Both the position numbers and the translations under genes were made by a program. A stretch of DNA of 58,403 nt. It comes from an uncultured bacterium. Its GTDB lineage: Bacteria > Zixibacteria > MSB-5A5 > GN15 > FEB-12. The stretch lies in contig CBDVDR010000021.1 of assembly GCA_965372795.1 (NCBI GenBank), positions 1 to 58,403 on the forward strand, written 5' to 3'. Shown one piece after another: positions 7,702-58,092 of this stretch (position 1 is the stretch's first letter; every line of letters starts with the position of its first letter). The notes beneath the pieces were generated by a model. That model saw only the letters and a program-made list of their open reading frames with translations. It did not search any database and was not told the origin of the DNA.

Positions 7702-7710
7702 ATAGAAAAC

Positions 7711-7738
7711 AAAAAAGGCTGCCGGAAGGCAGCCTTTT
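7711..7738. terminator. Bidirectional intrinsic terminator
   Basis: AAAAAAGGCTGCC-GGAA-GGCAGCCTTTT between convergent genes. Confidence 0.9.
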
Positions 7739-7761
7739 GAAAATTATATATTACCTGCTTG

Positions 7762-8817: not shown

Positions 8818-8901
8818 TTCTCCCCGAAATGGTTATTTATTATATAAAAAATTATAATAAGTTTAATATAAAAATCCAATTAAATTGAAAAAATAATGAT
8901 T

Positions 8902-8936
8902 AAAAAAAGAGTGTGCCTCCCCTCAAAAACACACTC
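8902..8936 (-). terminator. Intrinsic terminator candidate
   Basis: GAGTGTG...CACACTC stem with an A8 run on + (U-run on -); the loop is large. Confidence 0.55.
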
Positions 8937-8959
8937 AATTTCAACAGGAGAAAAATTAT

Positions 8960-13569: not shown

Positions 13570-13585
13570 TGGCATTGTAATTGCT
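13570..13585 (+). promoter_or_regulatory. Sigma54 (-24/-12) promoter
   Basis: TGGCATTGTAATTGCT gives GG-N10-GC, 46 bp upstream of the ATG at 13632. Confidence 0.8.
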
Positions 13586-13631
13586 AACATATATATCAGA
13601 TCAGTTTATTCTTATTAATATAGAGGCAAAT

Positions 13632-18503: not shown

Positions 18504-19037
18504 ATGAAAATATTTACTTTTACTATTATTGCAATTATAAGTTTTGGACTAATTTCTTGCAGTTCAGATAATGAAGCAACTAATAACAAAACTGAAACTA
18601 CTACTCCAAAATCAACAGTTGTTTCAAATTCGTCTACAGTAGACTTTGCCGCTTATGATCTAAACGGAAATTTGCATCAATCAAGCGAATGGATTGGCAA
18701 ACAACCGGTAGTAATAAATTTCTGGGGGACCTGGTGCCCGCCATGCCGCAGAGAGATTCCTGATCTGGTTAAACTGTACGATGAATACAATCAAAAAGGT
18801 ATAGAAATTGTTAGTCTGGCGGTTAAAGATACTCCGGACAAAGTTGATGTGTATAAAGAAAAAGCCGGGATGGGATGGGTGATGCTTATGGGAACTCCTG
18901 CAATTATGATGAGCATGAATGCTACTAAGGGTGTCCCGACAACAATATTTCTCGACAAACAAGGTAACGAAGTTACCCGGTTTGTAGGTATGAGAGATTA
19001 CAATACATTCAAGCAGGCGTTTGAGTCGTTATTGTAA
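18504..19037 (+). CDS. TlpA/ResA-family thiol-disulfide oxidoreductase lipoprotein
   Basis: Lipobox LISC, NFWGTWCPPCRREIP, GVPTT. Confidence 0.9.
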   Translation: MKIFTFTIIAIISFGLISCSSDNEATNNKTETTTPKSTVVSNSSTVDFAAYDLNGNLHQSSEWIGKQPVVINFWGTWCPPCRREIPDLVKLYDEYNQKGIEIVSLAVKDTPDKVDVYKEKAGMGWVMLMGTPAIMMSMNATKGVPTTIFLDKQGNEVTRFVGMRDYNTFKQAFESLL

Positions 19038-19185: not shown

Positions 19186-20197
19186 ATTTCTCTTTGAAGA
19201 ATAATCGAAGCATGTACCAGATTAAACCGATTGCAATGACAAAAAATATCAAAAAGAGAATAAATACTAACCATTCAGGTCTCACCGGTATGGTTGAGGG
19301 ATCGAAATAGTTTTCCAGATACATTAGTCGTACATAGTGGCGAATCGTTACCATGCCAATAAGCGAAACAAATAACATTGACCCGGATACAAAAAAATTC
19401 TTTTTCATAAAAAAGTGTAACGAGCCTAAAGACAGAATGATTGAAACTAAAAGCCACCAAATTGCCGGAGTACGCATAAAGGGAATAAGAAAATCACCAA
19501 AGGTGAACATATAAACAAATCCGAGGATCATCGCGGCAGCCATTCCCCACAGGTAAAAATTCTTACCGATTGAATATATATTATCATCATCTTTTCCAAG
19601 CCACCCGACAAAGAAAGCACCAACGGTTATTGCTCCTAACATCATATGAAGCCATCTAAAAATGTAGGTTCCAAACTCAGTATTCAGTTGCAATCCTGAT
19701 TGGTTGCCCGCATAAAGCGTCTGATATAGATCCGGACGTTCTACAAGGGAAAACACTGAGCTGTAAATAAATGAGATATAGAGAAAACCAGCTAATGAGA
19801 TACTAAGATATAGGCCGATTTTTGATTTGTTTTTTTCTTTTGCAAAAGCGGCTCCATATAAAAAATAATATGAAACGATTGCCACAACAAATATCATTAT
19901 CCAGAACCAGGCACTTACAATTGAGGCAGCATAAGCCTGTTTTGCATAAACCAATTGTAAAAACAGAAGTGGTGCCACTGCAAAGGAAACAGTCGCTGCC
20001 ATGGCTGATGGAAATAGTTTTACAAATTTTAGAACAACCGGATTATTCCATTTGTCCTGTATTTTTGAAAACAGAAGGATAACTATCCCGCCAAAAAGAA
20101 AATTCATCGCTACAAAATGCAATGTGAGAGTCACAATATGCAGAACAGTAATCAGCCATAAAGGTGCTGATAAAAAGTTATAGTCAGGAAGGTTCAT
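19184..20197 (-). CDS. Polytopic membrane protein, probable second (CydA'-like) subunit of a bd-type oxidoreductase
   Basis: About 9 TM helices with intramembrane His (LHFVAMN, RWLHMMLG); ATGA overlap with the upstream cydA-like gene. Confidence 0.65.
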   Translation of the reverse strand: MNLPDYNFLSAPLWLITVLHIVTLTLHFVAMNFLFGGIVILLFSKIQDKWNNPVVLKFVKLFPSAMAATVSFAVAPLLFLQLVYAKQAYAASIVSAWFWIMIFVVAIVSYYFLYGAAFAKEKNKSKIGLYLSISLAGFLYISFIYSSVFSLVERPDLYQTLYAGNQSGLQLNTEFGTYIFRWLHMMLGAITVGAFFVGWLGKDDDNIYSIGKNFYLWGMAAAMILGFVYMFTFGDFLIPFMRTPAIWWLLVSIILSLGSLHFFMKKNFFVSGSMLFVSLIGMVTIRHYVRLMYLENYFDPSTIPVRPEWLVFILFLIFFVIAIGLIWYMLRLFFKEK

Positions 20198-21705
20198 TGA
20201 GCACCTTCTTCCTCTAAAGATTTCAAATATTCTATCATGGCTTGCCTTTCAACATTATCACCGGTAAAAGGAGGCATCTCATCGGCAAAATCAGACGCGT
20301 TATCGAGAATGTCATTATAATCTTCATCATCCAATCCAAGTAACGATTCCGATTTGTCATTGTAGCCACCCATCTCGTGACATCTGCCACATCTTATGTC
20401 GAAAACTTTTTTACCGAGTTCAAGGCCTGATAATCCATAAATATCTTTAATGTGGTTCTTATCAATTTGTTTTTCAAGGTATAAAGCAAGTTTTTCAACT
20501 TCCTCATCCGGCATCCTCATCTCGGGCATATTCCCTTTCATAACATGAGTCCCCCGAATTATTCCAGCGATAAACTCAGCATCGGTGCCATCAAGCGCAG
20601 GCTTGAGGGGTTTATAACCATCTATGGTATGACAGCTTCGGCAAGCATGACGGAACAGATCGGCACCATCATCCCCGGTTCGAAATGTCATATTTGCCAG
20701 ATAGCCTTCTTCTTCATATTTATCAAGATTAGCAAGTTCAACACCATTGCCATACATGTAATCAGTGATCACATAGGGCTTCCTGATTGATTCCCGAAAC
20801 CATTCAAAGGCACCGAACCATCCCAAACCTAATGCCATTGTCACAATTGCAATTATCAGGTGTTGTTTTTTGGGTAAAATCAAACCGTAGATTATCAACA
20901 TTAAACCAATTCCACCGGCAAACCAGTATGAATCATTATATGATATAATAGGGGTTGGCATCATTTCCTGGGCGGTTTGAATTATATGCGAAGGAATAGC
21001 GTGCCAATACCAATAAAATGATGGTAATATGATGGCTAAGCCTGCTAAACCCCACACCGCATTGTAACGGACAATAGATTTTTTAAAATCATTCGGTTTA
21101 TAACGCGATGCTACAAGCAATGCAAAGATTCCCGCCAGCATAATACAGATTCCGGTTCGGATAACCAGTGATGGCCAATAGGTCGGGTTGAAGAATCCAT
21201 CCCAGAAATTACCGGTTGTGATCCATTCTCCCGGGGTAAGCATATATGTGATAATTCCATTAATGACCACCAGAGATAAATATGCCGAAACAAAATATAT
21301 CCATCCGACAATCATATGATCTTTGCCTGACATTTTCTTCCAGCCATAATAGTAAATTAAGGCAGAGCAAATTTCGACAGTAAAAAATGTCCATTCAATT
21401 CCCCATGCCCAAACAAAATTATGGATCAAGGCTTCTGTTGCAGCCGGATTCAACAAACCGATAATAAACCAGATCCCTACTCCGGTCAAAGCCCCAAAGA
21501 CAACCGAAACTAAAACAAAAAACTTACTCAACTTTTGTAAATAGTCGAGTCTGAGACTGTCTCCTTTTTTTCGGGCAGCAGATTCAGCAACAACTAAATA
21601 TAGCCCTCCGCCGATTGCAAAATGTGATACAAAGACATGGATAACAGCAATTACCGCCATAAACAGACCATAGCCGATATCCACATCCCAAAATGGATAA
21701 TTCAT
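20194..21705 (-). CDS. Cytochrome bd oxidase subunit I-like protein fused to a di-heme cytochrome c domain
   Basis: HVFVSHFAIG, GALTGVGIWF, WGIEWTFFTVE, FFNPTYWP, EWFRESIRKPY, then CRSCH and CGRCH with distal Met candidates. Confidence 0.85.
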   Translation of the reverse strand: MNYPFWDVDIGYGLFMAVIAVIHVFVSHFAIGGGLYLVVAESAARKKGDSLRLDYLQKLSKFFVLVSVVFGALTGVGIWFIIGLLNPAATEALIHNFVWAWGIEWTFFTVEICSALIYYYGWKKMSGKDHMIVGWIYFVSAYLSLVVINGIITYMLTPGEWITTGNFWDGFFNPTYWPSLVIRTGICIMLAGIFALLVASRYKPNDFKKSIVRYNAVWGLAGLAIILPSFYWYWHAIPSHIIQTAQEMMPTPIISYNDSYWFAGGIGLMLIIYGLILPKKQHLIIAIVTMALGLGWFGAFEWFRESIRKPYVITDYMYGNGVELANLDKYEEEGYLANMTFRTGDDGADLFRHACRSCHTIDGYKPLKPALDGTDAEFIAGIIRGTHVMKGNMPEMRMPDEEVEKLALYLEKQIDKNHIKDIYGLSGLELGKKVFDIRCGRCHEMGGYNDKSESLLGLDDEDYNDILDNASDFADEMPPFTGDNVERQAMIEYLKSLEEEGAQ

Positions 21706-42951: not shown

Positions 42952-45900
42952 CTATTTAATTAACATCATCTTTTTAGTATCAACGAACTTTTCTGTCTGA
43001 AGTCGATAGAAATAAATTCCGGTTGATACTTTGTTGCCGTGATCATTATCCCCATTCCACTCTGCAGAATACCGATTGCGAGAAAGAACGTTATTGATCA
43101 GGGTTTTGATTCTTTGACCCAGAACGTTATAGACTTCCAAGCGAACATGACTTGCTGTTGGAATTTGGAAATCAATCGTTGTTACCGGGTTGAACGGGTT
43201 AGGATAGTTTTGTCTCAAAGAATATGAATCAGGTAAATCACCGGCAACCGCATGAACACCCGGAGGTACATCGTAGTTGAAGCTGATGACAACTTCAGCA
43301 GTATCAGCACCACAGCCTTCAGTTGCAAAGAAGGATATCCGATAATAACCTTTTAGTTTAGGATAGAAAGAAAACTCAGCGGTACCATCTCCATTGTCAA
43401 CAAACACAGAAGAATCAGGCTGATCTTCATTGGTATACATTTCTATCGTTTGTCCCTCTGCATCAGAAGCTGAGATTGTGAAAATCAATGAGTCTTCAGC
43501 AGTCTTAATAGTATCGCCTGTATATGTGTTAGTTATTCCGCCAATTGTATATTCGATTGTATTGATCACAGGCAATGTATTTTCTATTACCGTTAATCTA
43601 ACATATTGAGTATCGCTAAGACCACAGTTGTCGTTTGCAAAGAAAGCCAAGTCATAGGAGCCAACATCTTTATTCTCAGGTATCCATTTGAAAAAGATAA
43701 ATCCGTCATCATCTTTCTTTTTAATCAAGTTACTTCCGCCGGGGAAGCTCTCTGAAGGATCAGCCATAGCGTAACTGTAAGTGAGTGCAAGTCCTTCAGT
43801 GTCATTGCCATCCATAAGGATTTTAAAAGTAGTATCACATGCTTTAATTGTTTTGTCTGCAATTGCTTCAAGAGTAGGAGCAAGATTTTCATTTACTGTT
43901 ATCAATACGACTTCACTATCAAGTGATTGACACTCGACATCCTGAATATAGAAAGTAATTGCATAGACACTATCGCCATCATCTCCAGCTTGATCACCGG
44001 TTGGAATCCAGCGGAAAGTAGCGTTGCCATAATTATCTTTAAAGAACATTCCCTCTTCAAGACTATCTGAGACAAGTATAGAGGAAATATTATTAAGAGA
44101 ACCACCATGAGTATCTGCTGTAATTGTAAGCTCCAAAGTGTCACAAGCAACAACTTCCTGAGCACCAATCGATGTGATAACAGGTGGATAAAGGTTTGTA
44201 ACTACAACTTGAACATCACTTGTATCCTGCAAACAACCATCGGTTGCTAATAAACTGAAATTGAAGGTGCCGTCCTGAGAACCTTGTGGATACCATTTAA
44301 ACGTTACTGTACCATCAAAATTATCAAAAAGTTCAGCTCCTTCAGGAAGGTTGATTCCGCCATATCCCGGTAAACCATCCGGATCAGAAATACCAAAATC
44401 AAAGATCAGACTATCACAAAGATTAACTGCAAGGTTGTTATCAGCAACTGTTATAGTTGGTTTTTGATTAGCACCAGTATTTTCAACAACAGTAAAGTAG
44501 TGAGGACCATCCCATTCCGGAATTAGCTTACCCCATTTCCAACGAGGAGTTTCATTATCAATACCAGGAGCTTTCCATCCGAATAAAGAATCAAGACAGA
44601 TTCTTCTTCCTGCAAAAGCCGGATCAATCGGACCAATTGTTATCGCTAATAGCGTATCGTTATAGCCTTCAATTAATCCAGGAATACCAAATCCTTCAAA
44701 TTGAATTAAATCTATGTCAGAACCAGTAGAAGCTAACCGTTTAATTGTATTAGAAAAGAATTGAGAGTTATTTTCAAAGGATCCATTTACTCTGGACCAT
44801 TGCATAAGGCTATCTGGTTCATCTTCAAAAAGAATATCTTCTGGAGAAAAGATTTTAAATGAGTTAAGAATATCCGTTACAACAGTTCCGGAATTATTCT
44901 CAAAATTGATGTAAAATGTAATTGTTTTACAAGTCAAGATAGAATCAGTACTTGTTCCATATAATCCATCAACACCGGCTAAGGAAATTTTACCTGAACC
45001 AGGAAATACAACGAAATCAACTGAAGTACTATCTGTGCGATATCCGTCATCAGCGTAGAACATGATATTAAAACGACCGGTATCAACTGGTGTCCAGACA
45101 AGATTGGCAACCCCGTTACCTGAATCAACGAGTTCCGCTCCACTTGGGAGACTTGAAGAGGTCATCGACAGTTGTTTATTTTCCGGGTCTGAGGCTTTTA
45201 CAATAAACTGAAACTCTTTGCCAATAAATATTGAAACAGAAGTTTCTTCAATCGGCTCAAATACCGGGGGCTGGTTACCAGCTTCAAGAATGGTAATTTC
45301 TACTACTTCACTATCAGCAGCCAAAACACCGTCATCAGCAAAGAATTTTATATGGTAAATACCTGATTGATCATAAGAAGGAATCCAGGTAAAGGTTCCG
45401 GTTCCATCTCCGTTATCAATCAATTCAACATTACCAGAAGGCATGGTGTTAGGATCAACACCTATACTTGGAATAGCGCAATTGAATGGTATCGTAGTCG
45501 AAATAGTAAAGAATAATACTTTGTTTTCTTCAACTGCTTGAGATCCGATTGGATTTAAAACAGGAAGTTGATCAGCAATATCTCTTACAAATACTTCAAC
45601 AGGATAAGGAGTTGAAGCTTCTCCATCAAAAGCAACGATACCCACAATATTAGGTCCAGATTGACAGTAAGTAGGGATCCATTCGACTAAGGCAGTATCA
45701 TTGCCTAAATCTGTAACCGTTAAACCAAGCGGGAAGTCTACTTCAGGAATATTAGTCGGGAATGAAACAGAAGATCCTTCAGGATCAGAGGCTGTAATTA
45801 AGAATGAAATATATTCATTCTCATCAACTACAAACGGACCAGCAACATTAAACACTGGAGGCTGATTACCGGCATCCTCAATAATGATAGAAATTTCTTT

Positions 45901-47106
45901 ACTTACCGATAAAGCACCATCGTCGGCATAGAATATAATGTTATTATACCCACTTTGAACATAAGTCGGTGTCCAAGTAAATTTTCCGGTTCCATTTCCA
46001 TTATCTTCAAATATAACTCCCGGAGGAAGTTGTTCGGCTGTTAAAAATAGTTTATCACCATCCGGATCAGATGCTGCAACTATAAATTCGAGGGCATCAC
46101 CCTCGGTTACTGTTAAAACAATCTCATCACCGGTAACATCAATACCATCAATTGAAACAAGAACCGGAGCAATATTTGTCGGTGTGGCAATAGTTATCGA
46201 AACAACCTCACTGTCAACAAATTCACCATCGGAAGTGAAGAAAGTTACACTGTAGTAACCTTCATCAACAACTGTTGTATTCCAATTGAAAGTAGCTGAA
46301 CCATTATTATTATCTATAAAAGTAGCACCGGCAGGAAGATTGAGAACTGTAAAGTAAGGGGTGGTTCCATTAGGGTCAGAAGCAGTTATATCAAAATTTA
46401 AATTATTTCCGGAAGCTATTCCTTTTGAGCCTATTTCATCAAGAACCGGAGCTTCGTTCGGAACTTCAATTACCGAAATTTCAATTTCTTCAAAGTCTGT
46501 AACAATCTCTTCGGTATATAATACAAAATTATCGGTCACATAAAAGATAACAGAATTTAAAGATATATCCTGTTTAGAGAATTGCGGTGTCCAATCAAAA
46601 GTCGCTGTCCCATCAAAATGATCGATTAATGTCGCTCCACCCGGAAGACGTTCCGCACTGAAGAAAAGCGAATCACCATCAGCATCAGAGGCTGTGATAA
46701 GGAAATTTATATTTTGACCGCGGGTAACAGTTTTAGCTCCAATAGGATCTAAGATCGGTTCAGTGTCCACTGTTATAGTGACAAACTCCTGAACCAGAAC
46801 ATCGTTAGATTGAGCATAAAAACTAAAGACAAATTCTCCGGCAGCTACGGGAGTCCACTCAAAATGACCGGTTCCATCGCCATTATCGGTAAATACAAAA
46901 CCGGCAGGCGGAACAGGACTTGGTAAAATCCCCAATGAAATAGCATCATCATCAGCATCGCTGGAAGTAACATCAATACTTACTGCAAAGCCGATTTTGG
47001 AATTAATATTTCCAATCTGGTCCAATACCGGCGGATTGTCTTGTCCGTATGCTGAACAGAAAGCTAAAATCATAATTACGGTAAAAAGTAAAAACTTTGA
47101 TCTCAT
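42952..47106 (-). CDS. Giant secreted protein C: 7 cadherin/Ig-like repeats, cohesin-like domain, 4 repeats, T9SS/FlgD-like C-terminal sorting domain
   Basis: Signal peptide; repeats of N..P...A.D.(D/E)G....LP.GA...DN.DG...F.W.P; LRQNYPNPFNP...GIYFYRL...KKMMLIK; GGAG SD before 47106. Confidence 0.85.
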   Translation of the reverse strand: MRSKFLLFTVIMILAFCSAYGQDNPPVLDQIGNINSKIGFAVSIDVTSSDADDDAISLGILPSPVPPAGFVFTDNGDGTGHFEWTPVAAGEFVFSFYAQSNDVLVQEFVTITVDTEPILDPIGAKTVTRGQNINFLITASDADGDSLFFSAERLPGGATLIDHFDGTATFDWTPQFSKQDISLNSVIFYVTDNFVLYTEEIVTDFEEIEISVIEVPNEAPVLDEIGSKGIASGNNLNFDITASDPNGTTPYFTVLNLPAGATFIDNNNGSATFNWNTTVVDEGYYSVTFFTSDGEFVDSEVVSITIATPTNIAPVLVSIDGIDVTGDEIVLTVTEGDALEFIVAASDPDGDKLFLTAEQLPPGVIFEDNGNGTGKFTWTPTYVQSGYNNIIFYADDGALSVSKEISIIIEDAGNQPPVFNVAGPFVVDENEYISFLITASDPEGSSVSFPTNIPEVDFPLGLTVTDLGNDTALVEWIPTYCQSGPNIVGIVAFDGEASTPYPVEVFVRDIADQLPVLNPIGSQAVEENKVLFFTISTTIPFNCAIPSIGVDPNTMPSGNVELIDNGDGTGTFTWIPSYDQSGIYHIKFFADDGVLAADSEVVEITILEAGNQPPVFEPIEETSVSIFIGKEFQFIVKASDPENKQLSMTSSSLPSGAELVDSGNGVANLVWTPVDTGRFNIMFYADDGYRTDSTSVDFVVFPGSGKISLAGVDGLYGTSTDSILTCKTITFYINFENNSGTVVTDILNSFKIFSPEDILFEDEPDSLMQWSRVNGSFENNSQFFSNTIKRLASTGSDIDLIQFEGFGIPGLIEGYNDTLLAITIGPIDPAFAGRRICLDSLFGWKAPGIDNETPRWKWGKLIPEWDGPHYFTVVENTGANQKPTITVADNNLAVNLCDSLIFDFGISDPDGLPGYGGINLPEGAELFDNFDGTVTFKWYPQGSQDGTFNFSLLATDGCLQDTSDVQVVVTNLYPPVITSIGAQEVVACDTLELTITADTHGGSLNNISSILVSDSLEEGMFFKDNYGNATFRWIPTGDQAGDDGDSVYAITFYIQDVECQSLDSEVVLITVNENLAPTLEAIADKTIKACDTTFKILMDGNDTEGLALTYSYAMADPSESFPGGSNLIKKKDDDGFIFFKWIPENKDVGSYDLAFFANDNCGLSDTQYVRLTVIENTLPVINTIEYTIGGITNTYTGDTIKTAEDSLIFTISASDAEGQTIEMYTNEDQPDSSVFVDNGDGTAEFSFYPKLKGYYRISFFATEGCGADTAEVVISFNYDVPPGVHAVAGDLPDSYSLRQNYPNPFNPVTTIDFQIPTASHVRLEVYNVLGQRIKTLINNVLSRNRYSAEWNGDNDHGNKVSTGIYFYRLQTEKFVDTKKMMLIK

Positions 47107-47145
47107 TTTGTAGGCTCCATGCAATATATAATTTATCAGCTGAAA

Positions 47146-50100
47146 CTATTTCAGCATCATCATCTTTTTGGTTTCTGTATAATCATCCGTTATCAATTTA
47201 TACATATAAATTCCGGATGCTACTTTGGCACCATTATCATTGGTACCGTTCCACTCAACGATATATGAGTTAGGAGACATCTGACCATCGGCAAGAGTCT
47301 TTATTTTCTGTCCGAGAACATTGAAGACTTCCAGAGTGACATAGGAACTCTTTGACAACCCAAACTGGATTTGAGTAGTTGGGTTAAACGGGTTCGGATA
47401 ATTCTGAGTCAGGAAGTAGGCATCAGGAATACCGGCGGTTTGGTCGGTAGTTATGCCGGTAATAATATCAAACATCAATTTCGTACTATCCATTACACCG
47501 CAAATATCTTCAACATAAAATGTTATTTCATAAGTTCCGGTTGGAACAAATTCAGTCAACCAAATAAATGAACCGCTGTCATTATTATTATTTTCAATGT
47601 CTAATAACTGAGCTGAGTCAGGGAGTGGAGTAGAAAGATAAGAAATCCTGAACCCATCAGCATCAATCGCATTAAGAATAAAAGAGATAGAGTCGATCAA
47701 ATTCAAATTAATGACGGTATCAATAATAGGCTCCAGAAATACCGGAGGAGTATTTGCCAATACTTCGACATTAACCTCAAGTGTATCTGAGACTGTACCG
47801 CACCCATTATCTATTCCATAGAATTTAAGCAGATAGACACCGGCTTCATCAGCCGTCGGAGTCCATTCAAAAATACCATTCTTTTCACTTATTACAGCAC
47901 TACCCGGTAATGCATCATTATAGAACTTTATAGTATCACTTGTTATAATTTCAAAAGAGACAACATCACAAGCGCTGACAGTTATATCATCAACCTGATC
48001 AAGTTCCGGTTTGGCATCAAGAGTTATTGTAATATTAACTTCCTGAGTATCAGTAGCACCGCAGGCATCAACAGCTTCAAAAAGGGCGGTGTAATTTGTA
48101 ATATTGGTATCGAGGTTAGGTGCCCAGGTGAAGACATCTTCTTTAAAGTCTGAACCGGGCATCTCATCTTTATTGAGAAGTGATAAGGTTACATCAGTAC
48201 CATCCGGGTCTGAAGCCGAAACTGTGAAACTAATTTCATCTTTACATTCAGTTGCAAATTTTGGTCCCTGAGCAGTAAAGATAGGAACCGGGTTACTGTT
48301 AACAGTGATTACAACATCCCGTGAACCAATGGTTAAACAGTCATCCTTAGATCTGAATTTAATAGTATAAACCGCACCACCCTGAGCAGCAGTCGGAGTC
48401 CATGAAAATTCTTTAATTACCGGATCAAAGATAGCACCTTCCGGTAATTCATCTTCCCAGAAAATTCCAACCGGAGATCCTTCAGGATCTGTTGCAGAGA
48501 CTGTAAAGACAACCGGGTTGCAAGCAACAACGGTGGTATCATTTACTCCGCCTTCAAATACATCTAGAAACTCAGGAATACCATCCGGATTGACAGTAAG
48601 ATCAACATCAAGAGTTGCTTGTGTGCCAACTTCATCAGTTGCTGTAAAATTAAGGGTATAAAAACCATCATCATGAGTTGTCGGTACCCAGGCAAAGTCA
48701 CCGGTGGTTGTATTAAATGATGCCCCATCTGGCAGATTGCTTAATGAATAAATTACGGAAGTAGTTTCCGGATCAACTGCGATAACTGTGAACTCTACCG
48801 AGTTACAGGCGTCAACAAATTTTGGATCGATAGGTGTAAAGACCGGAGCAGCATCTGAAGCGAGATTGATTGTCACGGTGATGACATCTGTTAATCCACA
48901 GGCATCAGTAACAATAAAATCAATAATATACGGTGATAAGGCTGCAGCACCAGCTAATGGAGACCATGAGAAAGCACCGGACACTCCATCAAGAGTTGCT
49001 GTACCGGGCATGTCAGGGTCAACCGTTGAAAAGACAATTGCCTGTCCTTCTGTATCTGTAGCTTCAAGTGTAAATTCTATCAGGTCACCTTCATTATTAT
49101 TGAATGGTCCCGGAGTAGTTGTAAATGAAGGAGCGATATTATCATTAACAGTAATTGTAACCGGCAGATCAAAAGTTGCACCACATGGGTCGGTGGCGGT
49201 AAAAGTCAAATTATGAACTCCGTTATCACCATCTACAGGTGTCCAGGAATAAGCACCGCTGTTGGCATCCAATGTTGCGCCGGGGAGGTTCACATCTACA
49301 GAGTAAATTAAGTCAAGTCCTTCAGGATCAGAACCATCAAGTGTAAAGTCAACTGGGAGACATTCTTTAACAGTAATAGGCGCAATAGCAGCAATCGTAG
49401 GGGCCTGGTTATCAATGACCGTTATCGAAATTGTTTCAGTATCCTCACCACCAAGTTCTTCAGCTTTGAAAGTTACACTATAAGGGCTTGAAGCATTAGC
49501 GTTCACATCCGGTGTCCAACTGAATGTTGCAGTTCCGTCTTCATGGTCATCAAATGTTGCCCCAGCAGGAATATTTTCGGCAGTTAGAATTGGAGGTGTG
49601 CTGGGTTCTAATGGATTTGAACCGGTAACGGTAAATTCTAAAAGACCACATTCACCAATGGCTTTGTCTCCAATCGGGTCAAGAACCGCTGGAATATTTT
49701 GTGCTACATCAAAAATTGTAAAACAATGTGGTCCATCCCAATCAGGGACCATATCTGTTCCTCCAGAATTCCATTTCCAAGCACCTGCAGGAGGATAGTA
49801 AGATGAATCCAAACAGATCTCTTTTCGATGATATATTGGAAGAATCGGACCAATATTAATCGTCCAGACAATCTCTTCAAAACCGTTTGGTATACCAGGA
49901 GCAAAAAGTGAGAAGCCACCAAAACCAACAGTATCAGCACCCTCTCCGGTAACTGAGAATTGGTTTACAAAACTTTGTTCAGCCATACTTGGAAGAATTG
50001 TTCCAGTATAATAACCAATTGTATCATTGGCAGGAACAGTCCATTCTGCCCCATTATTTGAATATACTCTAAATCCATTAGTCCAACCTTTTGTTGGTAC

Positions 50101-50280
50101 ACCCAATTGATTGGTCATTCGAATATGGAATATAATAGAATCAGCATTTACATCTAAGGTATCGTTACTTGTTCCATAAAGACCGTCAACATGATCCAAA
50201 AACATTCCACTCTGAGCGAAGGTCGGTGTAGTCAACAGTAAGACAATAAAAGTTAATAACAGCAATTTTCTTGGATTCAT
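47146..50280 (-). CDS. Giant secreted protein B: cohesin-like domain, 8 cadherin/Ig-like repeats, T9SS/FlgD-like C-terminal domain
   Basis: GGAGG SD and signal peptide at 50280 (MNPRK); same repeats; LTQNYPNPFNP...KKMMMLK. Confidence 0.85.
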   Translation of the reverse strand: MNPRKLLLLTFIVLLLTTPTFAQSGMFLDHVDGLYGTSNDTLDVNADSIIFHIRMTNQLGVPTKGWTNGFRVYSNNGAEWTVPANDTIGYYTGTILPSMAEQSFVNQFSVTGEGADTVGFGGFSLFAPGIPNGFEEIVWTINIGPILPIYHRKEICLDSSYYPPAGAWKWNSGGTDMVPDWDGPHCFTIFDVAQNIPAVLDPIGDKAIGECGLLEFTVTGSNPLEPSTPPILTAENIPAGATFDDHEDGTATFSWTPDVNANASSPYSVTFKAEELGGEDTETISITVIDNQAPTIAAIAPITVKECLPVDFTLDGSDPEGLDLIYSVDVNLPGATLDANSGAYSWTPVDGDNGVHNLTFTATDPCGATFDLPVTITVNDNIAPSFTTTPGPFNNNEGDLIEFTLEATDTEGQAIVFSTVDPDMPGTATLDGVSGAFSWSPLAGAAALSPYIIDFIVTDACGLTDVITVTINLASDAAPVFTPIDPKFVDACNSVEFTVIAVDPETTSVIYSLSNLPDGASFNTTTGDFAWVPTTHDDGFYTLNFTATDEVGTQATLDVDLTVNPDGIPEFLDVFEGGVNDTTVVACNPVVFTVSATDPEGSPVGIFWEDELPEGAIFDPVIKEFSWTPTAAQGGAVYTIKFRSKDDCLTIGSRDVVITVNSNPVPIFTAQGPKFATECKDEISFTVSASDPDGTDVTLSLLNKDEMPGSDFKEDVFTWAPNLDTNITNYTALFEAVDACGATDTQEVNITITLDAKPELDQVDDITVSACDVVSFEIITSDTIKFYNDALPGSAVISEKNGIFEWTPTADEAGVYLLKFYGIDNGCGTVSDTLEVNVEVLANTPPVFLEPIIDTVINLNLIDSISFILNAIDADGFRISYLSTPLPDSAQLLDIENNNNDSGSFIWLTEFVPTGTYEITFYVEDICGVMDSTKLMFDIITGITTDQTAGIPDAYFLTQNYPNPFNPTTQIQFGLSKSSYVTLEVFNVLGQKIKTLADGQMSPNSYIVEWNGTNDNGAKVASGIYMYKLITDDYTETKKMMMLK

Positions 50281-50400
50281 ATTTGCGGGCCTCCGAAAAA
50301 CTTGAATGTTCTCATAATCATGTGAAAAAATAAACTTTAAAAGTAAACCTTTCATCTCCCCGTGGGGGCGTTACCTTTTTTATATTTACAAAATTGTCGC

Positions 50401-50692
50401 AATATAGTAATCACACCGCTGGCTGACAAGCTTCACAGTGAAAATAATTAGACAATAATATGTACAATTACGGATAATTTCAACCCCTTACTGCAAGTTT
50501 TTAGATGGAATAACAGGATATTTCCGAACTATAATTAACTATGCAGAAAAAGCTCCAACCTCCCTTAAATGTCTGTTCCCAAATAGTCACAAAGGTCTCT
50601 TCAGAAGCCATATAAGGCTCTGACATACAATGGCTTAACGACACTTAGCCAAAGTAAGTCACCAACATAGTAAATTCCGACTTATTTGTCAA
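50401..50692 (-). promoter_or_regulatory. Three tandem sigma70-like promoters
   Basis: TTGACA-N17-TATGTT (50664-50692), TTGAAA-N17-TATTAT (50455-50483), TTGTCA-N17-TATATT (50401-50429). Confidence 0.6.
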
Positions 50693-50837
50693 CAGGAAAT
50701 AAGAATTTGCACTTGTAACAATGGTATAACTTATCCAGTAATACCGCTTGCAAACAGAATTTCAAGCTGTTGATCTTTACTATATTCTTCCAGTAAAGAC
50801 GCATCAGACAGATAATGTGATTAATTATTTAAAAAAC

Positions 50838-50866
50838 AAAAAGCCCCCCGAAATCGGGAGGCTTTT
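50838..50866. terminator. Intrinsic terminator, possibly bidirectional
   Basis: AAAAAGCCCCCCG-AAAT-CGGGAGGCTTTT. Confidence 0.85.
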
Positions 50867-50932
50867 AGTATCAATATTGTAACTGCCTCAATGTGGCAGC
50901 TTTGATATTTAAATCTAAAGTGGTGTGACCAC

Positions 50933-53900
50933 TTATTTTAGCATTATCATTTTCTTGGTTTCAGAATATTTTCCGGCTTCCAGTTTATAGAAGTAAATAC
51001 CGGAAGCGACTCTTAATCCAATATCAGAAGAACCATCCCAGAAGGCGGTGTAAGTATTGGGTGACATAACTTCGTCAACCAATATTTTAATCCGCTGACC
51101 CAGCACATTGTAAACTGCAAGGGTTACGTGGGATTTTTCCGAAACGCCGAATTCAATCTGAGTTTCCGGATTGAATGGGTTCGGATAGTTCTGGCTGAGA
51201 TAGAAATCTTCCGGCAATCCGGCGCCATCGACTACCTCAACCGAAGTAGCAATACCGAATATGACCGAAATCTCGGTTGTATCAACGTCGTCTGATGCGA
51301 AGAACAAAATTTCATAATCATCAGCAACTGTGTTTTCAGTTGTTATCCATTCAAATCCGCCCACACCATTGCCACTGTCTGTAAATTTAAAAACTTCAGT
51401 AGCAGGGATTATATCAGTATCAGCCCACAACGTCAGAACAGTATTTCCGAGTGCGGTTGACGGAGCAACTTTACCAGCCGGGGCAAAGTCTTCATCTGAA
51501 GCGGTAATACGATATTCAATTAAACCACCCTGTTGAATTGATGGCGGTTCCGGGAGATCATCACCAAATACCGGCTTTGAGTTTTCAAGGACTGTGATAA
51601 CTACTAATTGTGAATCAGTTGAACCGCAGGCATCAGTTACTTTCACCCAAAGACTGTCTACTCCTGCTTCTTGGTTATTTGGTTTCCAGCTGAAATTAGC
51701 AGTGTTATTTACAGGATCGCTAAAGGTTGCATTTGGAGAAGCATTTACAAGCTCAAATTCTAAGTCTGTATCTCCACCTGCATCTATTGCTGAGAAAGTA
51801 AACCCAACAGCGATACCTTGAGTGGTTTCCTGAGCAGTATCAGATGCTGGAGCTATAGTTAATACTGGAGCTATATCAGCAGTGACTGTGATAGTTACTT
51901 CCATTGTGGCAACAACACCACATTCGTCCGTAGCTGTAAACTCGACCGCGTAAGGGCTGTTGTCACTATCACCAAGCACTAAAGGCCAACTGAATATTTT
52001 AGTATCAGGATCAAAATTTGCTGCTTCAGATGGCAGCCCGTTATGACCATATTTAGTAATTAAAACACCTTCAGGATCAGATGCCGAAATAGTAAATTCA
52101 ACCAGTTCGCATTCGGCAGCAGTAATCGGATCAATAACTACAAAGTCTGGTGCTTGATTTGCATTTATTGTTAAAGGCACGGTGAGTGTAGTGATTGTTT
52201 TGGTAACATCATTACAACCATCGTCACCTTCAAATACTATGTCAATTGAACTAGCAGTTCCAACCGGTGGTGTCCAGTTAAATTCACCTGCTTCAAATGT
52301 CGCTCCAGCAGGAATACCTTGATGGCTTAATGTAACATTATCACCATCAACATCGTTTCCAGTTACAGTGAATGTCATTAATTCACATTCTGTAACAGTA
52401 GTTGTTCCTGAAACTTCAAGTGTTGGAGGTGTGTTAATATTCACCGTAATAGTCACTGTACTGGAAACAACATTGCTACATTCATCAGTCACATTAAAAG
52501 TAACGTCAGTATTGGTGGTACCTTTATCAGGTGTCCAGGTAAACAGCCCGTCTACAAAAGTTGCACCGGTTGGAAGCCCAGTGTGACCATAAGTAATGGT
52601 TTCACCTTCAGGATCAGTTCCAACAACATTTAAAGATATTTCCTTACATTCAGTAACATCTAAAACACCGTTTACAGCGATTGTCGGTTCTTGATTTGCA
52701 GTGATAGTAATTGTAACAACCTCTGTAACAGAGTTTCCACAATCATCCTCGGCTGTAAAACTAACATCCTGTGTTCCTGCAGTTCCACTTGCCGGTGTCC
52801 ACGTAAAGAGTCCATTCACAAATTCTGCATTGCCTGGTAAGCCAAGATGTCCTAAAGTAATAGGACCGTTTTCAGGATCGGTTGCAGCTATGTTCAATGT
52901 AATTTCCTGACACTCTATAACAGGAGCTAAACCGCTCACAGTTATAGAAGGTGCCGCATTAGCTGTAACAACAACAGTTACAGCTTCAGTTACTGCATTA
53001 TCGCAGTCATCTAATCCTGTAAAAGTAATAGGATGATTACCAAGATCTCCGTTACTTGTCTCCCAGCTAAATTCGCCGGTGGCTTCATTATAAGATGCAC
53101 CAGTTGGAAGTCCTTCATGTCCAAGTGTGACTATGCCACCTTCAGGATCAAAAGGAACAATTGTAAATTCTATAAGACTGCACTCTGCACCGGTTATTGA
53201 ACCGACAACGGATAATGTTGGTGCAGCATTAGCTGTTACATTTACCGCCACAACTAAGTTGGTTGAATTACCACATGGATCATCGCCAGTAAATGTGATA
53301 TTGTATAAAGCTGCATCTCCTGAATTTGGTGTCCAGCTAAACACACCATTGTTAAATGTTGCTCCGGTAGGTAATGCCAAATGACCCAAAGTTACATCTT
53401 CTGATTCAGGATCAGTAGCAACAATTGTAAATTCAATTAACTGACACTCAATACCGCTTGTTGTTCCTTGAAATGCAAGAGTAGGCGGCTGATTAGCGTT
53501 GATAGTAATTGTAACAACTTCATTTACTGAATTATTACAATCATCAGTCGAATTGAAAGTTACGTCCTGTGTTCCAACAGTACCAGCACCAGGCGTCCAG
53601 GTAAACAGACCACCCACAAAAGTTGCTCCTGAAGGCAATCCAAGATCAGTTAAAGTCACTTCTCCACCTTCAGGGTCAATTGAAGAAACATTAAATTGTA
53701 TCTCCTGACACTCTATAACAGGTGCCAGACCACTGACTGAAATTGTTGGATCTTGATTAGTATTAATTGTTATTGTAACAATTTCTGTAACCGTATTAAA
53801 ACAATTATCCGTACCTTCAAAAGTTACATCCTGAGTCCCGGCAGTTCCAGGACCAGTTAACCAGGAAAATTCACCAGTTACTTCATCAAACGAAGCTCCA

Positions 53901-55453
53901 GCTGGCAACCCTTGATGTCCCAAAGTAACTTCTTCACCTTCAGGATCAAAAGAAGTTATTGTGAAATCAATCCGTTCACATTCTGTGGTTGTAGTAGATC
54001 CTTCAACTGAAAGCGTCGGAGCTTGATTGGCTTCAACAGTTATCGTTACTGTGAAATCTGTTGTATTTAAACAGTCATCTGTAGCTGTAAATATTATAAT
54101 GTGTTCACCGGCGTCCCCTTTGATTGGTGTCCATAAAAATAGACCATTCTCAAAAGTTGCACCCCCGGGAAGCCCGTTGTGATTCACTGTTAGAACTCCG
54201 GATTCAGCATCACTGGCACTAACACCAAATGATAATTCGGCACACTCGATAACTGTTTGAGTAGCAGAAGTAATAATGATCGGAGCTTCATCTTCAGATA
54301 TTATTAATGGAACTGTTAATGTATTAGAGGTATTGCCACAATCGTCGGTACCATTAAAAGTTGCAAAATGAGTACCCGCTTGACCAGAAGTAGGAGTCCA
54401 TGTGAATATTCCTGTTATCGGATTAAAAAATGCACCCGGTGGCAGACTCAATTCATTCAATGTAACCGGGGCACCTTCGGCATCGTCACCTGTAACAGTA
54501 AAAGTAATAGGCTCGCATTCTTTTGCAGTTGTGCCACCATCGTATGTAAGAAACGGCGCTTCATTAGGTATAATTGTCAAACTGACTGTCATTTCTGTTG
54601 ATAAACCGGAGAGAGGTGATAGAGCTGAAAACAGAATATTATATTCAGTTACTGCTTCACCATTAGCAGGTGTATAAGTAAAGGTAGCGCTTCCATCACC
54701 ATTATCAACAAAATTTGATCCGATAGGATCACCAGATACAACTGAGATTATTAGATTTGGATCACTCTGAGGGTCAGTTGCAAATAAATCTAAACTATAT
54801 TCAACACATTCCGGTGAAAATTGAGCAGCAATTTGTGGAAATTCCGGGGGCGCATCACCAGCGACACCAATTAAGAAGCAGTGTCCACCATTTTCCGAAT
54901 CACCATCCCAGGTTGGATCTGTTGATCCGACAACTAATGACCAGGTCCAGGCTCCGGCAGGCGGATAAAATGATGTATCAAGGCAGATCTCCCCGCCATT
55001 ATAGATATCACTTATCGGACCAATTTCAATTGTCCACACAATGTCATTAAACTCATCAGGAATGCCGGGAGCAAACAATGAAAATCCGCCAAATCCAACG
55101 GTATCAGCACCCATGCCATCAACAGAAAATTGGTTTACAAAACTTTGTTCAGCCATGCCAGTTGTAATGGCGCCAGTATAATATCCAATAGAATCCGGGT
55201 TAGTGACAGAAACACCCCATTCAGCACCAGAAGTTGTGTAAATACGGAATCCAGTCGTCCAGCCCTTAATGTTTTGACCAGTACTATTGTTCATTCCTAT
55301 ATGGAAAATAATAGGCGTAGCACCATCGGCAGTCAGAGTATTTTCGGGGGTTAGCCCCTCGACATGATCCAGATACATCTGTGTCTGTGCCGATGCGAAT
55401 GGTGTTGCGAGCAATAAAATGCCCAGCAAAATCGTTAGCTGTTTAAACCTCAT
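50933..55453 (-). CDS. Giant secreted protein A: cohesin-like domain, 13 cadherin/Ig-like repeats, T9SS/FlgD-like C-terminal domain
   Basis: GGAGG SD, signal peptide, 13 repeats of about 90 aa, LSQNYPNPFNP...KKMIMLK. Confidence 0.87.
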   Translation of the reverse strand: MRFKQLTILLGILLLATPFASAQTQMYLDHVEGLTPENTLTADGATPIIFHIGMNNSTGQNIKGWTTGFRIYTTSGAEWGVSVTNPDSIGYYTGAITTGMAEQSFVNQFSVDGMGADTVGFGGFSLFAPGIPDEFNDIVWTIEIGPISDIYNGGEICLDTSFYPPAGAWTWSLVVGSTDPTWDGDSENGGHCFLIGVAGDAPPEFPQIAAQFSPECVEYSLDLFATDPQSDPNLIISVVSGDPIGSNFVDNGDGSATFTYTPANGEAVTEYNILFSALSPLSGLSTEMTVSLTIIPNEAPFLTYDGGTTAKECEPITFTVTGDDAEGAPVTLNELSLPPGAFFNPITGIFTWTPTSGQAGTHFATFNGTDDCGNTSNTLTVPLIISEDEAPIIITSATQTVIECAELSFGVSASDAESGVLTVNHNGLPGGATFENGLFLWTPIKGDAGEHIIIFTATDDCLNTTDFTVTITVEANQAPTLSVEGSTTTTECERIDFTITSFDPEGEEVTLGHQGLPAGASFDEVTGEFSWLTGPGTAGTQDVTFEGTDNCFNTVTEIVTITINTNQDPTISVSGLAPVIECQEIQFNVSSIDPEGGEVTLTDLGLPSGATFVGGLFTWTPGAGTVGTQDVTFNSTDDCNNSVNEVVTITINANQPPTLAFQGTTSGIECQLIEFTIVATDPESEDVTLGHLALPTGATFNNGVFSWTPNSGDAALYNITFTGDDPCGNSTNLVVAVNVTANAAPTLSVVGSITGAECSLIEFTIVPFDPEGGIVTLGHEGLPTGASYNEATGEFSWETSNGDLGNHPITFTGLDDCDNAVTEAVTVVVTANAAPSITVSGLAPVIECQEITLNIAATDPENGPITLGHLGLPGNAEFVNGLFTWTPASGTAGTQDVSFTAEDDCGNSVTEVVTITITANQEPTIAVNGVLDVTECKEISLNVVGTDPEGETITYGHTGLPTGATFVDGLFTWTPDKGTTNTDVTFNVTDECSNVVSSTVTITVNINTPPTLEVSGTTTVTECELMTFTVTGNDVDGDNVTLSHQGIPAGATFEAGEFNWTPPVGTASSIDIVFEGDDGCNDVTKTITTLTVPLTINANQAPDFVVIDPITAAECELVEFTISASDPEGVLITKYGHNGLPSEAANFDPDTKIFSWPLVLGDSDNSPYAVEFTATDECGVVATMEVTITVTADIAPVLTIAPASDTAQETTQGIAVGFTFSAIDAGGDTDLEFELVNASPNATFSDPVNNTANFSWKPNNQEAGVDSLWVKVTDACGSTDSQLVVITVLENSKPVFGDDLPEPPSIQQGGLIEYRITASDEDFAPAGKVAPSTALGNTVLTLWADTDIIPATEVFKFTDSGNGVGGFEWITTENTVADDYEILFFASDDVDTTEISVIFGIATSVEVVDGAGLPEDFYLSQNYPNPFNPETQIEFGVSEKSHVTLAVYNVLGQRIKILVDEVMSPNTYTAFWDGSSDIGLRVASGIYFYKLEAGKYSETKKMIMLK

Positions 55454-55707: not shown

Positions 55708-58092
55708 TTACTCAGAGGGTGGCGGTGGGCCGTGATTGAATAGGTATTCTACAAGATAAGTAATATCAGAAATAAATATTGAACCGTCGCCATTGACATC
55801 CCCGCCATAACGATCTACAGAACCGCCATTAAAGAGATATTCAACAAGGGCGGTTAAATCCGAGATATTGATTTCATCATCACAATTACTGTCGCCATGC
55901 GGACAAATTTTGACAAAAATCTTGCCTGGCTCATAAATCGGGAAGTAATCGCCATATATTGAAATCATATTCGGTTTTTTGAAGCTTACAGTAGCGGTAT
56001 CAATAACGATTAAATCACCCGGATCGCCGTTTTTTCCTATTGAGAAATAGAGGTTAAGTATATCTCCACTACCGGGTTGCAGGTAAATTGATTCCCCGGC
56101 GGCTTTATTACTTGATTGCATTCTAATTGAATAGCTGTTAGTTGCCGGACTTTGAGCATTATAGGTTACACTATGAAAATAATCAGTTCTTAGGCCGGCA
56201 GTTGAAAATGAATCAAGATCAATATCTACCCCTGTTTCAAATTTGAATGCGAAGATAATTTCATCAATAAGAGAAGTATTGCTTAAGTAAACAGGAATAA
56301 CGACCTCTTCCCCAACTTTCGCCTGAGCAGAATCCAGAGACAAAGTATCGCCGCGAACCCAAATATATCTTTTTAGGTGCTCTTCCCCTAATCCAAGGGG
56401 GTTATTTACGTCCACAAGCAGTGAAATATCATAAATACCCGGGTCATTAAATGTATAGGTCGGGCTTTGATCAGTAGAAATATCGCCCGTTCCAAAATTC
56501 CAATCCCATGCCGTCGGTAAATCTGGGGAAGCCGGAGATAAATCGGTGAATTGTACTTGTAATGGGGCACTGCCCTCGGTAACATCAGCTGTAAATTTTG
56601 AAAAAGGTAAATCTTTTATAGAATTATAAACATTAATTCTTCCTGCTCCTAACAGACCAACATAAACCGGATTTTGTAGATCAATATTGTCAGCCGTCGC
56701 CATTATCAGCGAGTCTACCTGTTCTTTTGATAATGAAGGCATTACTGATCTAATCAAAAGAGCTTGCCCGGCAACCATCGGGGCTGCCATTGAAGTTCCT
56801 GATTTATAGCCAATACTGGGAACATATTGATAAGAGTTGGTTGAAAGAATAGACGATCCGGGTGCGCTGACATCAATCCAGGAACCAAAGTTTGAAAAGC
56901 TTGATCTTGCATCAGAGCTTGTTGTTGAGGCGATTGATAATACATTTGTAGCAGGATCAAAATCAAGATAATCTGGACAGTCACAACTTTCGTTGCCAGC
57001 CGCATGCATAATATTTACACCATTTAAAGCAGCATTTGCCATGCCCTGAATCATAGTAGAAGTTTGTGAGGAGCCCCAACTGGCGCTAATAACATGCGCT
57101 CCGTTATTGGCGGCATAGTCTATTGCTGTTCCGCAGTTGTTAGAATTCACATAGCCATTACCGTCTGTACCTGTTGCACCAACCCGGAGACAAATAATTC
57201 TTGCCCCACGGAATGAACGATGTCCACCAAACCAGCCACCGGCAACACCGGTAACATCAGTAGCATTATTTACCATGGCATCGGCAATACCGGCACAGTG
57301 AGTACCATGACCATTAAAATCATTCGGGTCATTATCAGTACCACCTCCATCTTCACCCGGATAAACTCCCCCGCCTAATCCGGTGAAAAAGTCATATCCG
57401 ATCAAATCGTCAGTTACACCATTGCCGTCATCATCAATCCCGTTCATATCATCTATATCATATACAACACCATCGCCATCGATATCTTCACCGGGATTAA
57501 CCCAAATATTTCCTTTTAGATCAGGATGTTTATAATTAACACCGCTATCAATCAAAGCCAGTTTTATTGAATCCGAGCCTGTTTCTAAATCCCAGGCATC
57601 AAAAACATGCGGATCATTTCCGGCGGGAGACATATGCCATTGACTAAAATATTCAGGATCGTCAGGATTAATCAATAATGGCAACGCCCAAACCGGTTCA
57701 GCGTTACGGATATTTGGATTTTGAAGCAGAGCTTCCACCACACTTCCCACTTCAATTGCTTCAGGAAAAGTTATTTCATAAAAGCGAGTGAGATCATGTA
57801 AACCAGAGCCAATGGGCGGTTTTTCTGTTCTCCAGGGAAACAGTTTTCTGGAGTCATTGACTTGAAAATCATCAAGAATCTTATCAAGGCTTGGCATCCC
57901 AAATCTTACTAATCCAAACCCTTTATTCATATTTTGAGGATCAACATCATCCTCAAATTGAATAGTTACTAAGCCTTTGATAATATAAGGCTTGGGCTGT
58001 TCTACACCGGCAATATAATTAGCCTGCAATGATGTCGAAATCAATAGCCCTGTAACAACGAATACAAATGCAATTAACTTTCCCCGGGTCAT
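55708..58092 (-). CDS. Secreted S8 subtilase with propeptide, PKD, cohesin-like and C-terminal dockerin domains
   Basis: Triad LIDSG / HGTHCAG / GTSMAAP plus AAGN; PKD WDWNFGTG; duplicated dockerin segments GDSNCDDEINISDLTALVEYLF and GDVNGDGSIFISDITYLVEYLF. Confidence 0.93.
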   Translation of the reverse strand: MTRGKLIAFVFVVTGLLISTSLQANYIAGVEQPKPYIIKGLVTIQFEDDVDPQNMNKGFGLVRFGMPSLDKILDDFQVNDSRKLFPWRTEKPPIGSGLHDLTRFYEITFPEAIEVGSVVEALLQNPNIRNAEPVWALPLLINPDDPEYFSQWHMSPAGNDPHVFDAWDLETGSDSIKLALIDSGVNYKHPDLKGNIWVNPGEDIDGDGVVYDIDDMNGIDDDGNGVTDDLIGYDFFTGLGGGVYPGEDGGGTDNDPNDFNGHGTHCAGIADAMVNNATDVTGVAGGWFGGHRSFRGARIICLRVGATGTDGNGYVNSNNCGTAIDYAANNGAHVISASWGSSQTSTMIQGMANAALNGVNIMHAAGNESCDCPDYLDFDPATNVLSIASTTSSDARSSFSNFGSWIDVSAPGSSILSTNSYQYVPSIGYKSGTSMAAPMVAGQALLIRSVMPSLSKEQVDSLIMATADNIDLQNPVYVGLLGAGRINVYNSIKDLPFSKFTADVTEGSAPLQVQFTDLSPASPDLPTAWDWNFGTGDISTDQSPTYTFNDPGIYDISLLVDVNNPLGLGEEHLKRYIWVRGDTLSLDSAQAKVGEEVVIPVYLSNTSLIDEIIFAFKFETGVDIDLDSFSTAGLRTDYFHSVTYNAQSPATNSYSIRMQSSNKAAGESIYLQPGSGDILNLYFSIGKNGDPGDLIVIDTATVSFKKPNMISIYGDYFPIYEPGKIFVKICPHGDSNCDDEINISDLTALVEYLFNGGSVDRYGGDVNGDGSIFISDITYLVEYLFNHGPPPPSE

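Follow-up and report, generated by a model that had tools for sequence, protein, structure and literature searches.

Paired cysteines at the junctions of consecutive cadherin-like repeats in three type IX secretion cargo proteins of a Zixibacteria genome, and a probable ladder of inter-repeat disulfides

Cysteine pattern in the repeat proteins A, B and C

The window analysed in this study, a stretch of 58,403 nucleotides (positions 1-58,403 of contig CBDVDR010000021.1 in the Zixibacteria genome GCA_965372795.1; positions are those of the whole window unless another contig or locus is named), carries three consecutive minus-strand genes, here called A, B and C, whose products are built of tandem He_PIG/cadherin-like repeats, a cohesin-like domain of about 170 residues, which is N-terminal in A and B and internal in C, and a C-terminal domain of the type IX secretion system (T9SS) (Table 1). 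The subject of this study is the distribution of cysteines among these repeats, where a Cys early in one repeat is accompanied by a Cys late in the next. The He_PIG family (PF05345) is matched in tandem copies, with 202.4 bits in A, 124.8 in B and 93.5 in C (cut-off 24), and Big_9 (PF17963) with 161, 84.9 and 80.8 bits, respectively (cut-off 23.6). The bacterial family Cadherin_5 scores above its cut-off of 26.5 in C (54.7) and in A (36.3) and below it in B (23.2), and none of the three proteins matches the Pfam Cadherin family PF00028 at E <= 0.01. The criterion for type A cargo of the T9SS was a sorting domain (TIGR04183 or PF18962) at the extreme C-terminus, and TIGR04183, with a cut-off of 23 bits, is found at residues 1423-1503 of A (37.2 bits), 986-1066 of B (40.4) and 1307-1387 of C (39.3). 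The N-termini, read by eye, are hydrophobic and end in A-x-A/Q-like sites. Judged from the onset of the signal peptide, B probably starts at Met26, with the listed ATG lying upstream (50281-50355), and C at Met7, with the listed TTG upstream (47107-47124).

The window's own repeats supplied the profile by which all repeats were segmented and aligned. In this profile the early Cys occupies column 16, in the A'-B turn, usually after Glu and about three residues before strand B, and the late Cys occupies column 75, in the F-G loop, as the last residue of the motif Asp-x-Cys. In protein A, the first repeat (R1) carries the early Cys only, R2 to R11 carry both, R12 carries the late Cys only and R13 has none; the codons of these residues were located, such as C216 at 54806-54808 and C1276 at 51626-51628. 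Protein B reads early only in R1, both in R2, late only in R3, early only in R4, both in R5 to R7 and late only in R8, and the sites without Cys at its R3/R4 junction read NNNEGD in R3 (49084-49101) and TDEVG in R4 (48625-48639). Protein C begins with seven Cys-free repeats, which are followed by the cohesin-like domain and then by three repeats with both Cys and a last one with the late Cys only. When the early Cys of each repeat n is compared with the late Cys of repeat n+1, all 28 junctions of A, B and C are concordant, 20 having both residues and eight having neither. The control registers give discordant pairs in 7/32 comparisons at shift 0, that is within the same repeat, 8/28 at shift -1, 3/24 at shift +2 and 6/24 at shift -2. 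Free permutation of the Cys states within each protein reached zero discordance in 0 of 200,000 trials, a null that ignores the kinship of tandem repeats, so that the slid registers are the fairer control. A first-pass annotation of this DNA had described the same Cys states repeat by repeat, including the missing early Cys in R3 and the missing late Cys in R4 of protein B, and had counted 28 concordant junctions, 20 with both and eight with neither; the profile segmentation re-derived these states, the two positions were verified and the recount is identical.

That annotation had also concluded that the two Cys of a repeat do not pair with each other, and our results bear this out. An ordinary disulfide between the early and the late Cys of each repeat would suit the fact that most Cys-type repeats hold both residues (51 repeats in the homolog set described below). 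However, a single Cys is present in 7 of the 32 window repeats and in 69 repeats of the homolog set, and both the comparison with the SraP structure and the strand order of our model, given below, put the two positions at opposite poles of the beta-sandwich. Parity points the same way. The 24 Cys of mature A and the 14 of mature B all belong either to the n/n+1 scheme or to a pair within the N-terminal domain, and the 22 repeat Cys of A and the 12 of B all find partners only when n is paired with n+1; pairing within repeats would strand two Cys in A, at the opposite ends of a 12-repeat rod, and four in B. On parity and topology we rejected disulfides within repeats, an explanation that is close to refuted. 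The R3/R4 junction is the sole internal junction of B without Cys, and the nearest relatives of R3 and of R4, orthologs aside, are repeats carrying both residues, which would fit, if weakly, a coupled loss of the two Cys at this junction.

Table 1. Positions and contents of the three repeat-protein genes, their parts and the adjoining protease gene in the window
Feature	Position	Strand	Content
Gene A	50933..55453	-	1506 aa; signal peptide (by eye), cohesin-like N-terminal domain, 13 He_PIG/cadherin-like repeats, T9SS C-terminal domain
Repeat array of A	51242..54853	-	11 consecutive Cys-bearing junctions; R12/R13 Cys-free
Cohesin-like N-terminal domain of A	54854..55390	-	By domain profile; own Cys pair C157/C192
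Gene B	47146..50355	-	1069 aa as listed; cohesin-like N-terminal domain, 8 repeats, T9SS C-terminal domain
Cohesin-like N-terminal domain of B	49702-50214
Repeat array of B	47452..49692	-	6 Cys-bearing junctions and 1 Cys-free (R3/R4)
Repeats R3 and R4 of B	48583..49134	-	R3 (48853-49134) without early Cys; R4 (48583-48852) without late Cys
Gene C	42952..47124	-	1390 aa as listed; 7 Cys-free repeats, internal cohesin-like domain, 4 Cys-type repeats, T9SS C-terminal domain
Internal cohesin-like domain of C	44464..44997	-	Residues 710-887; by domain profile
Second repeat array of C (R8-R11)	43270..44466	-	Early Cys 903, 994, 1096; late Cys 964, 1065, 1167, 1271
Cys pair C487/C549 of C	45478..45666	-	C487 at 45664-45666 (R5); C549 at 45478-45480 (R6)
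S8 subtilase with PKD and dockerin domains	55708..58092	-	By Pfam; outside the Cys pattern; directly upstream of A

Co-variation in homologs and replacement of the partner cysteine

Word-indexed, exhaustive profile and genome searches gave a homolog set of 359 proteins with 5,021 recognisable repeats. Between repeats n and n+1 of this set, both Cys are present at 59 junctions, the early Cys alone at 3, the late Cys alone at 15 and neither at 3,666, while within one and the same repeat the corresponding numbers are 51, 35, 34 and 4,146; these counts still contain stray profile matches from P0064 and P0083, two proteins whose module is of another kind, with some 6 Cys in each unit. The 59 junctions with both Cys are spread over 13 proteins, 20 of them in A, B and C and 39 in ten others, with 1 to 11 Cys junctions per array, and not one repeat-to-repeat junction in those 13 proteins is mismatched. 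The co-variation across homologs that the first-pass annotation had named as a check on its reading thus holds. Cys arrays with complete ends open with an early-only repeat and close with a late-only one, and P0438 and two further arrays that are truncated at contig ends also fit the n/n+1 pattern. Protein B and its ortholog P0005 share 14/14 Cys at 47% identity, together with the Cys-free R3/R4 junction, and C shares 11/12 Cys with P0015 at 40% identity.

Arrays of this type are rare. A profile search against the protein library listed 150 proteins, 148 of them new and nearly all Cys-free, which contributed no further Cys-type array, and among the 2,951 repeats of the proteins newly found by profile search only 16 have a Cys at either position. 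Of 285 genomes searched in the phylum, 11 encode proteins like B, our own genome counted, and all 11 belong to one family. The phylum search with A returned 30 loci, in which only the window's own and L029 are of the Cys type, a homolog search with P0006 added only P0438, and a search of metagenome contigs with protein A gave 78 pattern matches and no confirmed relative. The closest named database homologs are labelled Zixibacteria. The gene order recurs in another genome of the family, where at L056 (G091:C183) a protein with an early-only first and a late-only last repeat in its array (2870-5509) is followed by a C-type protein (5914-9999).

Such a narrow distribution bears on an explanation by inherited history, in which an ancestral array that by chance had an early-only start and a late-only end was enlarged through duplication of internal units, its Cys being free thiols or having some other role. 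All examples do lie in one family and in few orthologous groups, and the ends of an array could pass on unchanged while its inner units duplicate. This history, however, leaves unexplained the coupled absence at R3/R4 of B, which is kept in P0005, the conservation of the Cys at 40-47% identity (14/14 in B and 11/12 in C), and two features described next, namely the linker Cys that stand in for a missing partner and the extra Cys of cohesin-like domains, present only when the following repeat has a late Cys. We regard it as improbable.

Where the expected partner is absent from the repeat, a Cys is often found close by. In 11 of the 15 late-only cases, for example in the P0293 group, a Cys stands in the linker just before the repeat, and an early Cys in an array-final repeat is followed in 27 of 31 cases by a linker Cys no more than 15 residues past strand G, typically just ahead of a cohesin-like domain; our own genome has examples of the latter in P0004 and in an open reading frame (ORF) on contig 1 (292731-299006). 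Early, linker and late Cys thus stand in for each other as partners, which would be expected if the three positions come together at one junction. The first-pass annotation had left one loose end, the late Cys of R8 in protein C, C964, which faces the cohesin-like domain. An extra Cys, C732 (44929-44931), lies just before the second strand of this domain, and we propose it as the partner of C964 in this first repeat after the domain, which resolves the point. The extra domain Cys is present in 4/4 C-type orthologs (C itself, P0015, the L056 ORF and P0438) and absent from the 28 cohesin-like domains whose next repeat lacks the late Cys; P0118, the single exception, carries a Cys in the linker instead. 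Protein C also holds a further pair among its first seven repeats. One member, C487, sits in the E-F loop of R5, and the other, C549, in the B-C loop of R6, which has lost the Asp-Pro-Glu-Gly (D-P-E-G) motif. This pair is kept in P0015, the L056 ORF and P0438, and it is a second kind of junction pair common to C-type proteins.

Placement of the cysteines and the acidic residues of the junction

The sole sequence match of the repeats in the PDB is the pair of modules CDHL-1&2 of SraP from Staphylococcus aureus (4m03, E = 3.7e-05). With the SraP numbering offset verified on Asp661, Thr663, Asp690, Asn691 and Asp734, the alignment equates Glu15-Cys16 of the repeats with Glu587-Val588 of SraP, and the late Cys with Ser736, two residues past Asp734. 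According to the available part of the SraP report, Glu587 and Val588 form hydrogen bonds with Asn691 of the next module, and the Ca2+ at the junction is held by Asp734, Asp690, Asn691 and the linker (PMC4047093). In an AlphaFold2 model of three repeats (A 389-654; predicted local distance difference test, pLDDT, 94.6; predicted template-modelling score, pTM, 0.74), strands A' and B flank the early Cys and strands F and G the late one, and the Foldseek neighbours of this model are the protocadherins 5szo, 5t9t and 5dzv (E about 1e-11), the RTX extender 6xi1 and SraP. Together, the mapping on SraP and the loop assignment in the model indirectly place the two Cys of one repeat at opposite poles, so that the early Cys of n and the late Cys of n+1 would face the same junction. 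The pairing of n with n+1 and its position at the junction, both claimed in the first-pass annotation, have therefore stood up to parity, to ten homologs and to the SraP mapping, and we consider this pairing well supported; the disulfide nature that was claimed with it is what we infer from the pattern.

The same structure raises the thought of intermolecular disulfides that would tie parallel rods into a surface sheet or bundle, since SraP CDHL-1&2, in the accessible text of its report, dimerises with one module packed on the junction of the other chain (PMC4047093), and the junction Cys lie in surface loops of our model. The early(n)/late(n+1) rule is nevertheless simplest within one chain, where both positions already meet, and the behaviour of the array ends and the linker-Cys variants fit intrachain bonds. 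Bonds between chains are in our opinion very improbable.

The acidic set of the SraP junction, with Asp ligands in the B-C and F-G loops and a Glu after strand A, is present in the repeats. Comparing Cys-type with Cys-free repeats, Glu15 is found in 67% versus 83%, Asp27 in 93% versus 97% and Asp73 in 88% versus 92%, and the two Cys take the places of a small residue (Gly or Asn) and of a variable one. Because the acidic set is retained in Cys-type repeats, the staple would be added to the Ca-type junction and would not replace it, except at R5/R6 of protein C. The first-pass annotation had further suggested that the Cys-free junctions act as designed hinges, and this idea finds no support, because these junctions are simply the family default. 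They keep Glu15, Asp27 and Asp73 and resemble the 3,635 Cys-free junctions in the wider family, and the Cys-free junctions of SraP are described, in the part of the report at hand, as rigid when loaded with Ca2+ (PMC4047093).

A probable disulfide ladder, its rivals and its relation to known stalks

The reading that we favour, and that we consider rather probable, is that a ladder of inter-repeat disulfides has been added to a retained acidic Ca-type junction. A, B and C would be cell-surface rods exported by type IX secretion, each bearing its cohesin-like module on a stalk. In these rods a disulfide would join the C-terminal pole of repeat n, through the Cys of its A'-B turn, to the N-terminal pole of repeat n+1, through the Cys of the F-G loop there, and it would sit beside the acidic Ca-type site. 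Since successive bonds would overlap along the chain, in the order early n, late n, early n+1 and late n+1, they would form an interleaved ladder. Judged from this topology, the covalent path would run through strand A, the S-S bond, strand G, the linker and the next strand A, and so on along the stalk. Because the folded rod already holds these elements in an extended form, the oxidised stalk should be stiff and should resist both bending and force-induced lengthening.

Several findings weigh against this reading. Our own genome, which is 98.65% complete, gave no match to DsbB, VKOR, Thioredoxin_4 or DSBA (PF02600, PF07884, PF13462, PF01323). Of its T9SS cargo proteins, 51 contain Cys, an even number of them in 30 and an odd number in 21 (p = 0.26, with crude trimming of signal peptides), a weak bias; according to the available part of a review, an even-Cys bias of exported proteins goes with the presence of DsbA/DsbB, and strict anaerobes tend to keep Cys out of the proteins that they export (PMC12453122). 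In protein C, C843 (44596-44598) is an orphan, because the other member of the internal Cys pair of the domain is replaced by Tyr, while in P0015, the L056 ORF and P0438 this usual partner is Cys. Partnerless Cys also occur in distant homologs, in 4 late-only, 1 early-only and 4 array-final early cases. Finally, the Cys-type arrays represent few orthologous groups of one bacterial family, so that independent events are few and the large counts given above overstate the statistics.

Because of the missing DsbA/DsbB/VKOR matches and the weak even-Cys bias, a thiolate metal clamp stays a live rival of the disulfide ladder. Here the junction Cys and the neighbouring Glu or Asp would bind a soft metal (Zn, Fe or similar) with no S-S bond, and the Ca-type site of the junction would thereby have become a metal site. 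Both Cys adjoin conserved acids (Glu15-Cys16, Asp73-x-Cys75 and Asp27), and a shared metal site predicts paired presence and absence equally well. However, the linker-Cys variants resemble simple staples of two Cys, as does the C487/C549 pair, whose site has lost the acidic motif, and no His or additional Cys is conserved across A, B and C. To our knowledge, two thiolates with carboxylates would also be unusual as a site in secreted bacterial stalk domains, which we count against the clamp, and on the whole we find it unlikely.

Other observations describe the thiol chemistry available to this organism. The genome has two DsbD_TM genes, and the window itself contains two adjacent thioredoxin-fold genes, 17940-18479 (+) and 18504-19037 (+), whose products have lipoprotein signal peptides and CXXC motifs (W-C-G-W-C and W-C-P-P-C) and are possibly envelope thiol oxidoreductases, either oxidase or reductase. 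The T9SS C-terminal domain is present in 55 ORFs of this genome, and several of its cargo proteins carry 62-96 Cys. Three such ORFs lie at C1 326095-330759, C24 3445-9321 and C12 22259-27481, with 96, 90 and 62 Cys; the last one has a different Cys-rich repeat, similar to that of P0064 and P0083.

The closest known system with which to compare the proposed ladder is SraP of S. aureus (4M03/4M00; 26% identity in the Foldseek match). Like A, B and C, it consists of tandem beta-sandwich modules in a stalk that projects a distal binding module, and its junction likewise combines a Glu-x after strand A of module n with Asp or Asn from two loops of module n+1, B-C and F-G; the nearly invariant Asp27 and Asp73 of our repeats correspond to the SraP Ca ligands Asp690 and Asp734. 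SraP differs in having Val and Ser at the two Cys places, with one Ca2+ and hydrogen bonds alone at the junction, and in having two modules and being anchored to a Gram-positive cell wall. The extracellular cadherin (EC) repeats of cadherins and protocadherins are the best fold matches and likewise build rods from tandem domains whose inter-domain sites are acidic, but they bind three Ca2+ per junction, and A, B and C have no match to PF00028. We know of no serial inter-domain disulfides in cadherins. The extenders of RTX adhesins (6xi1) resemble the window proteins as long tandem Ig-like stalks that are stiffened at their linkers, but they differ in using type I secretion and Ca2+ alone, with no Cys ladder reported in the portion of the paper available (PMC7493085). 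The stalks of Gram-positive adhesins and pilins, reinforced by isopeptide, ester, thioester or disulfide bonds, share with our proposal the covalent strengthening of Ig-like repeats, but in the available text these bonds lie inside one domain, whereas the proposed ladder joins two consecutive domains (PMC10619420). In an example from the same excerpted source, the strands joined by the bond Cys6887-Cys6895 belong to a single sheet, and the inter-domain linker is described as flexible (PMC10619420).

In the literature searched, in which subscription journals were thinly covered, we found no report of disulfides that link domain to domain in series along bacterial stalks of Ig-like or cadherin-like repeats. 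Known stalks are stiffened by Ca2+ at the linkers or by covalent bonds inside single domains, and a serial domain-to-domain link, if true, would be a third design. A stalk of this kind should show no unfolding steps under force while it is oxidised, and the motif of Glu-Cys after strand A' together with Asp-x-Cys in the F-G loop would offer a simple means for engineering rigid protein rods. It would also have to be explained how secreted proteins become oxidised in an organism with no DsbA, DsbB or VKOR matches. Going further, we speculate that the ladder may provide a continuous covalent load path without hidden length, doing with disulfides what isopeptide bonds do in the locked pili of Gram-positive bacteria, that it would have arisen in the type IX-anchored rods of a small Zixibacteria clade, in an organism without DsbA/DsbB, and that redox conditions could switch the stalk between a rigid and a flexible state. 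This wider proposal is tentative and, taken as a whole, rather doubtful.

What the stalks may carry is indicated by the cohesin-like domain and by the neighbouring protease. The domain of B, modelled from a 13-row alignment (pLDDT 90.7, pTM 0.88), finds cohesins or cohesin-like domains in 22 of its 25 Foldseek matches at E <= 0.001, including the top ones. It resembles the cohesins of cellulosomal scaffoldins in fold (TM 0.54-0.65, E from 6e-05) and in having a dockerin-bearing protease next to it, but it differs from them in sharing only 7-16% identity, and A, B and C give no match to Pfam Cohesin PF00963; the binding of dockerin is putative here. The dockerin match of the subtilase gene lies at 55741-55899, and the genome has 23 dockerin matches. 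A complex prediction for the cohesin-like domain of A with the dockerin of the neighbouring protease scored 0.12 (mark 0.32), which speaks neither for nor against binding. The subtilase dockerin and the three cohesin-like proteins, as read from their domains, suggest that type IX secretion anchors a display system of the cohesin-dockerin kind.

Two further genes of the window were recorded. At 20194-21705 (-) a single ORF fuses an N-terminal part like subunit I of cytochrome bd with a c-type cytochrome domain, and at 13581-14285 (+) a small protein carries a PEP-CTERM sorting motif, so that this motif and type IX secretion tails are both in use in the genome.

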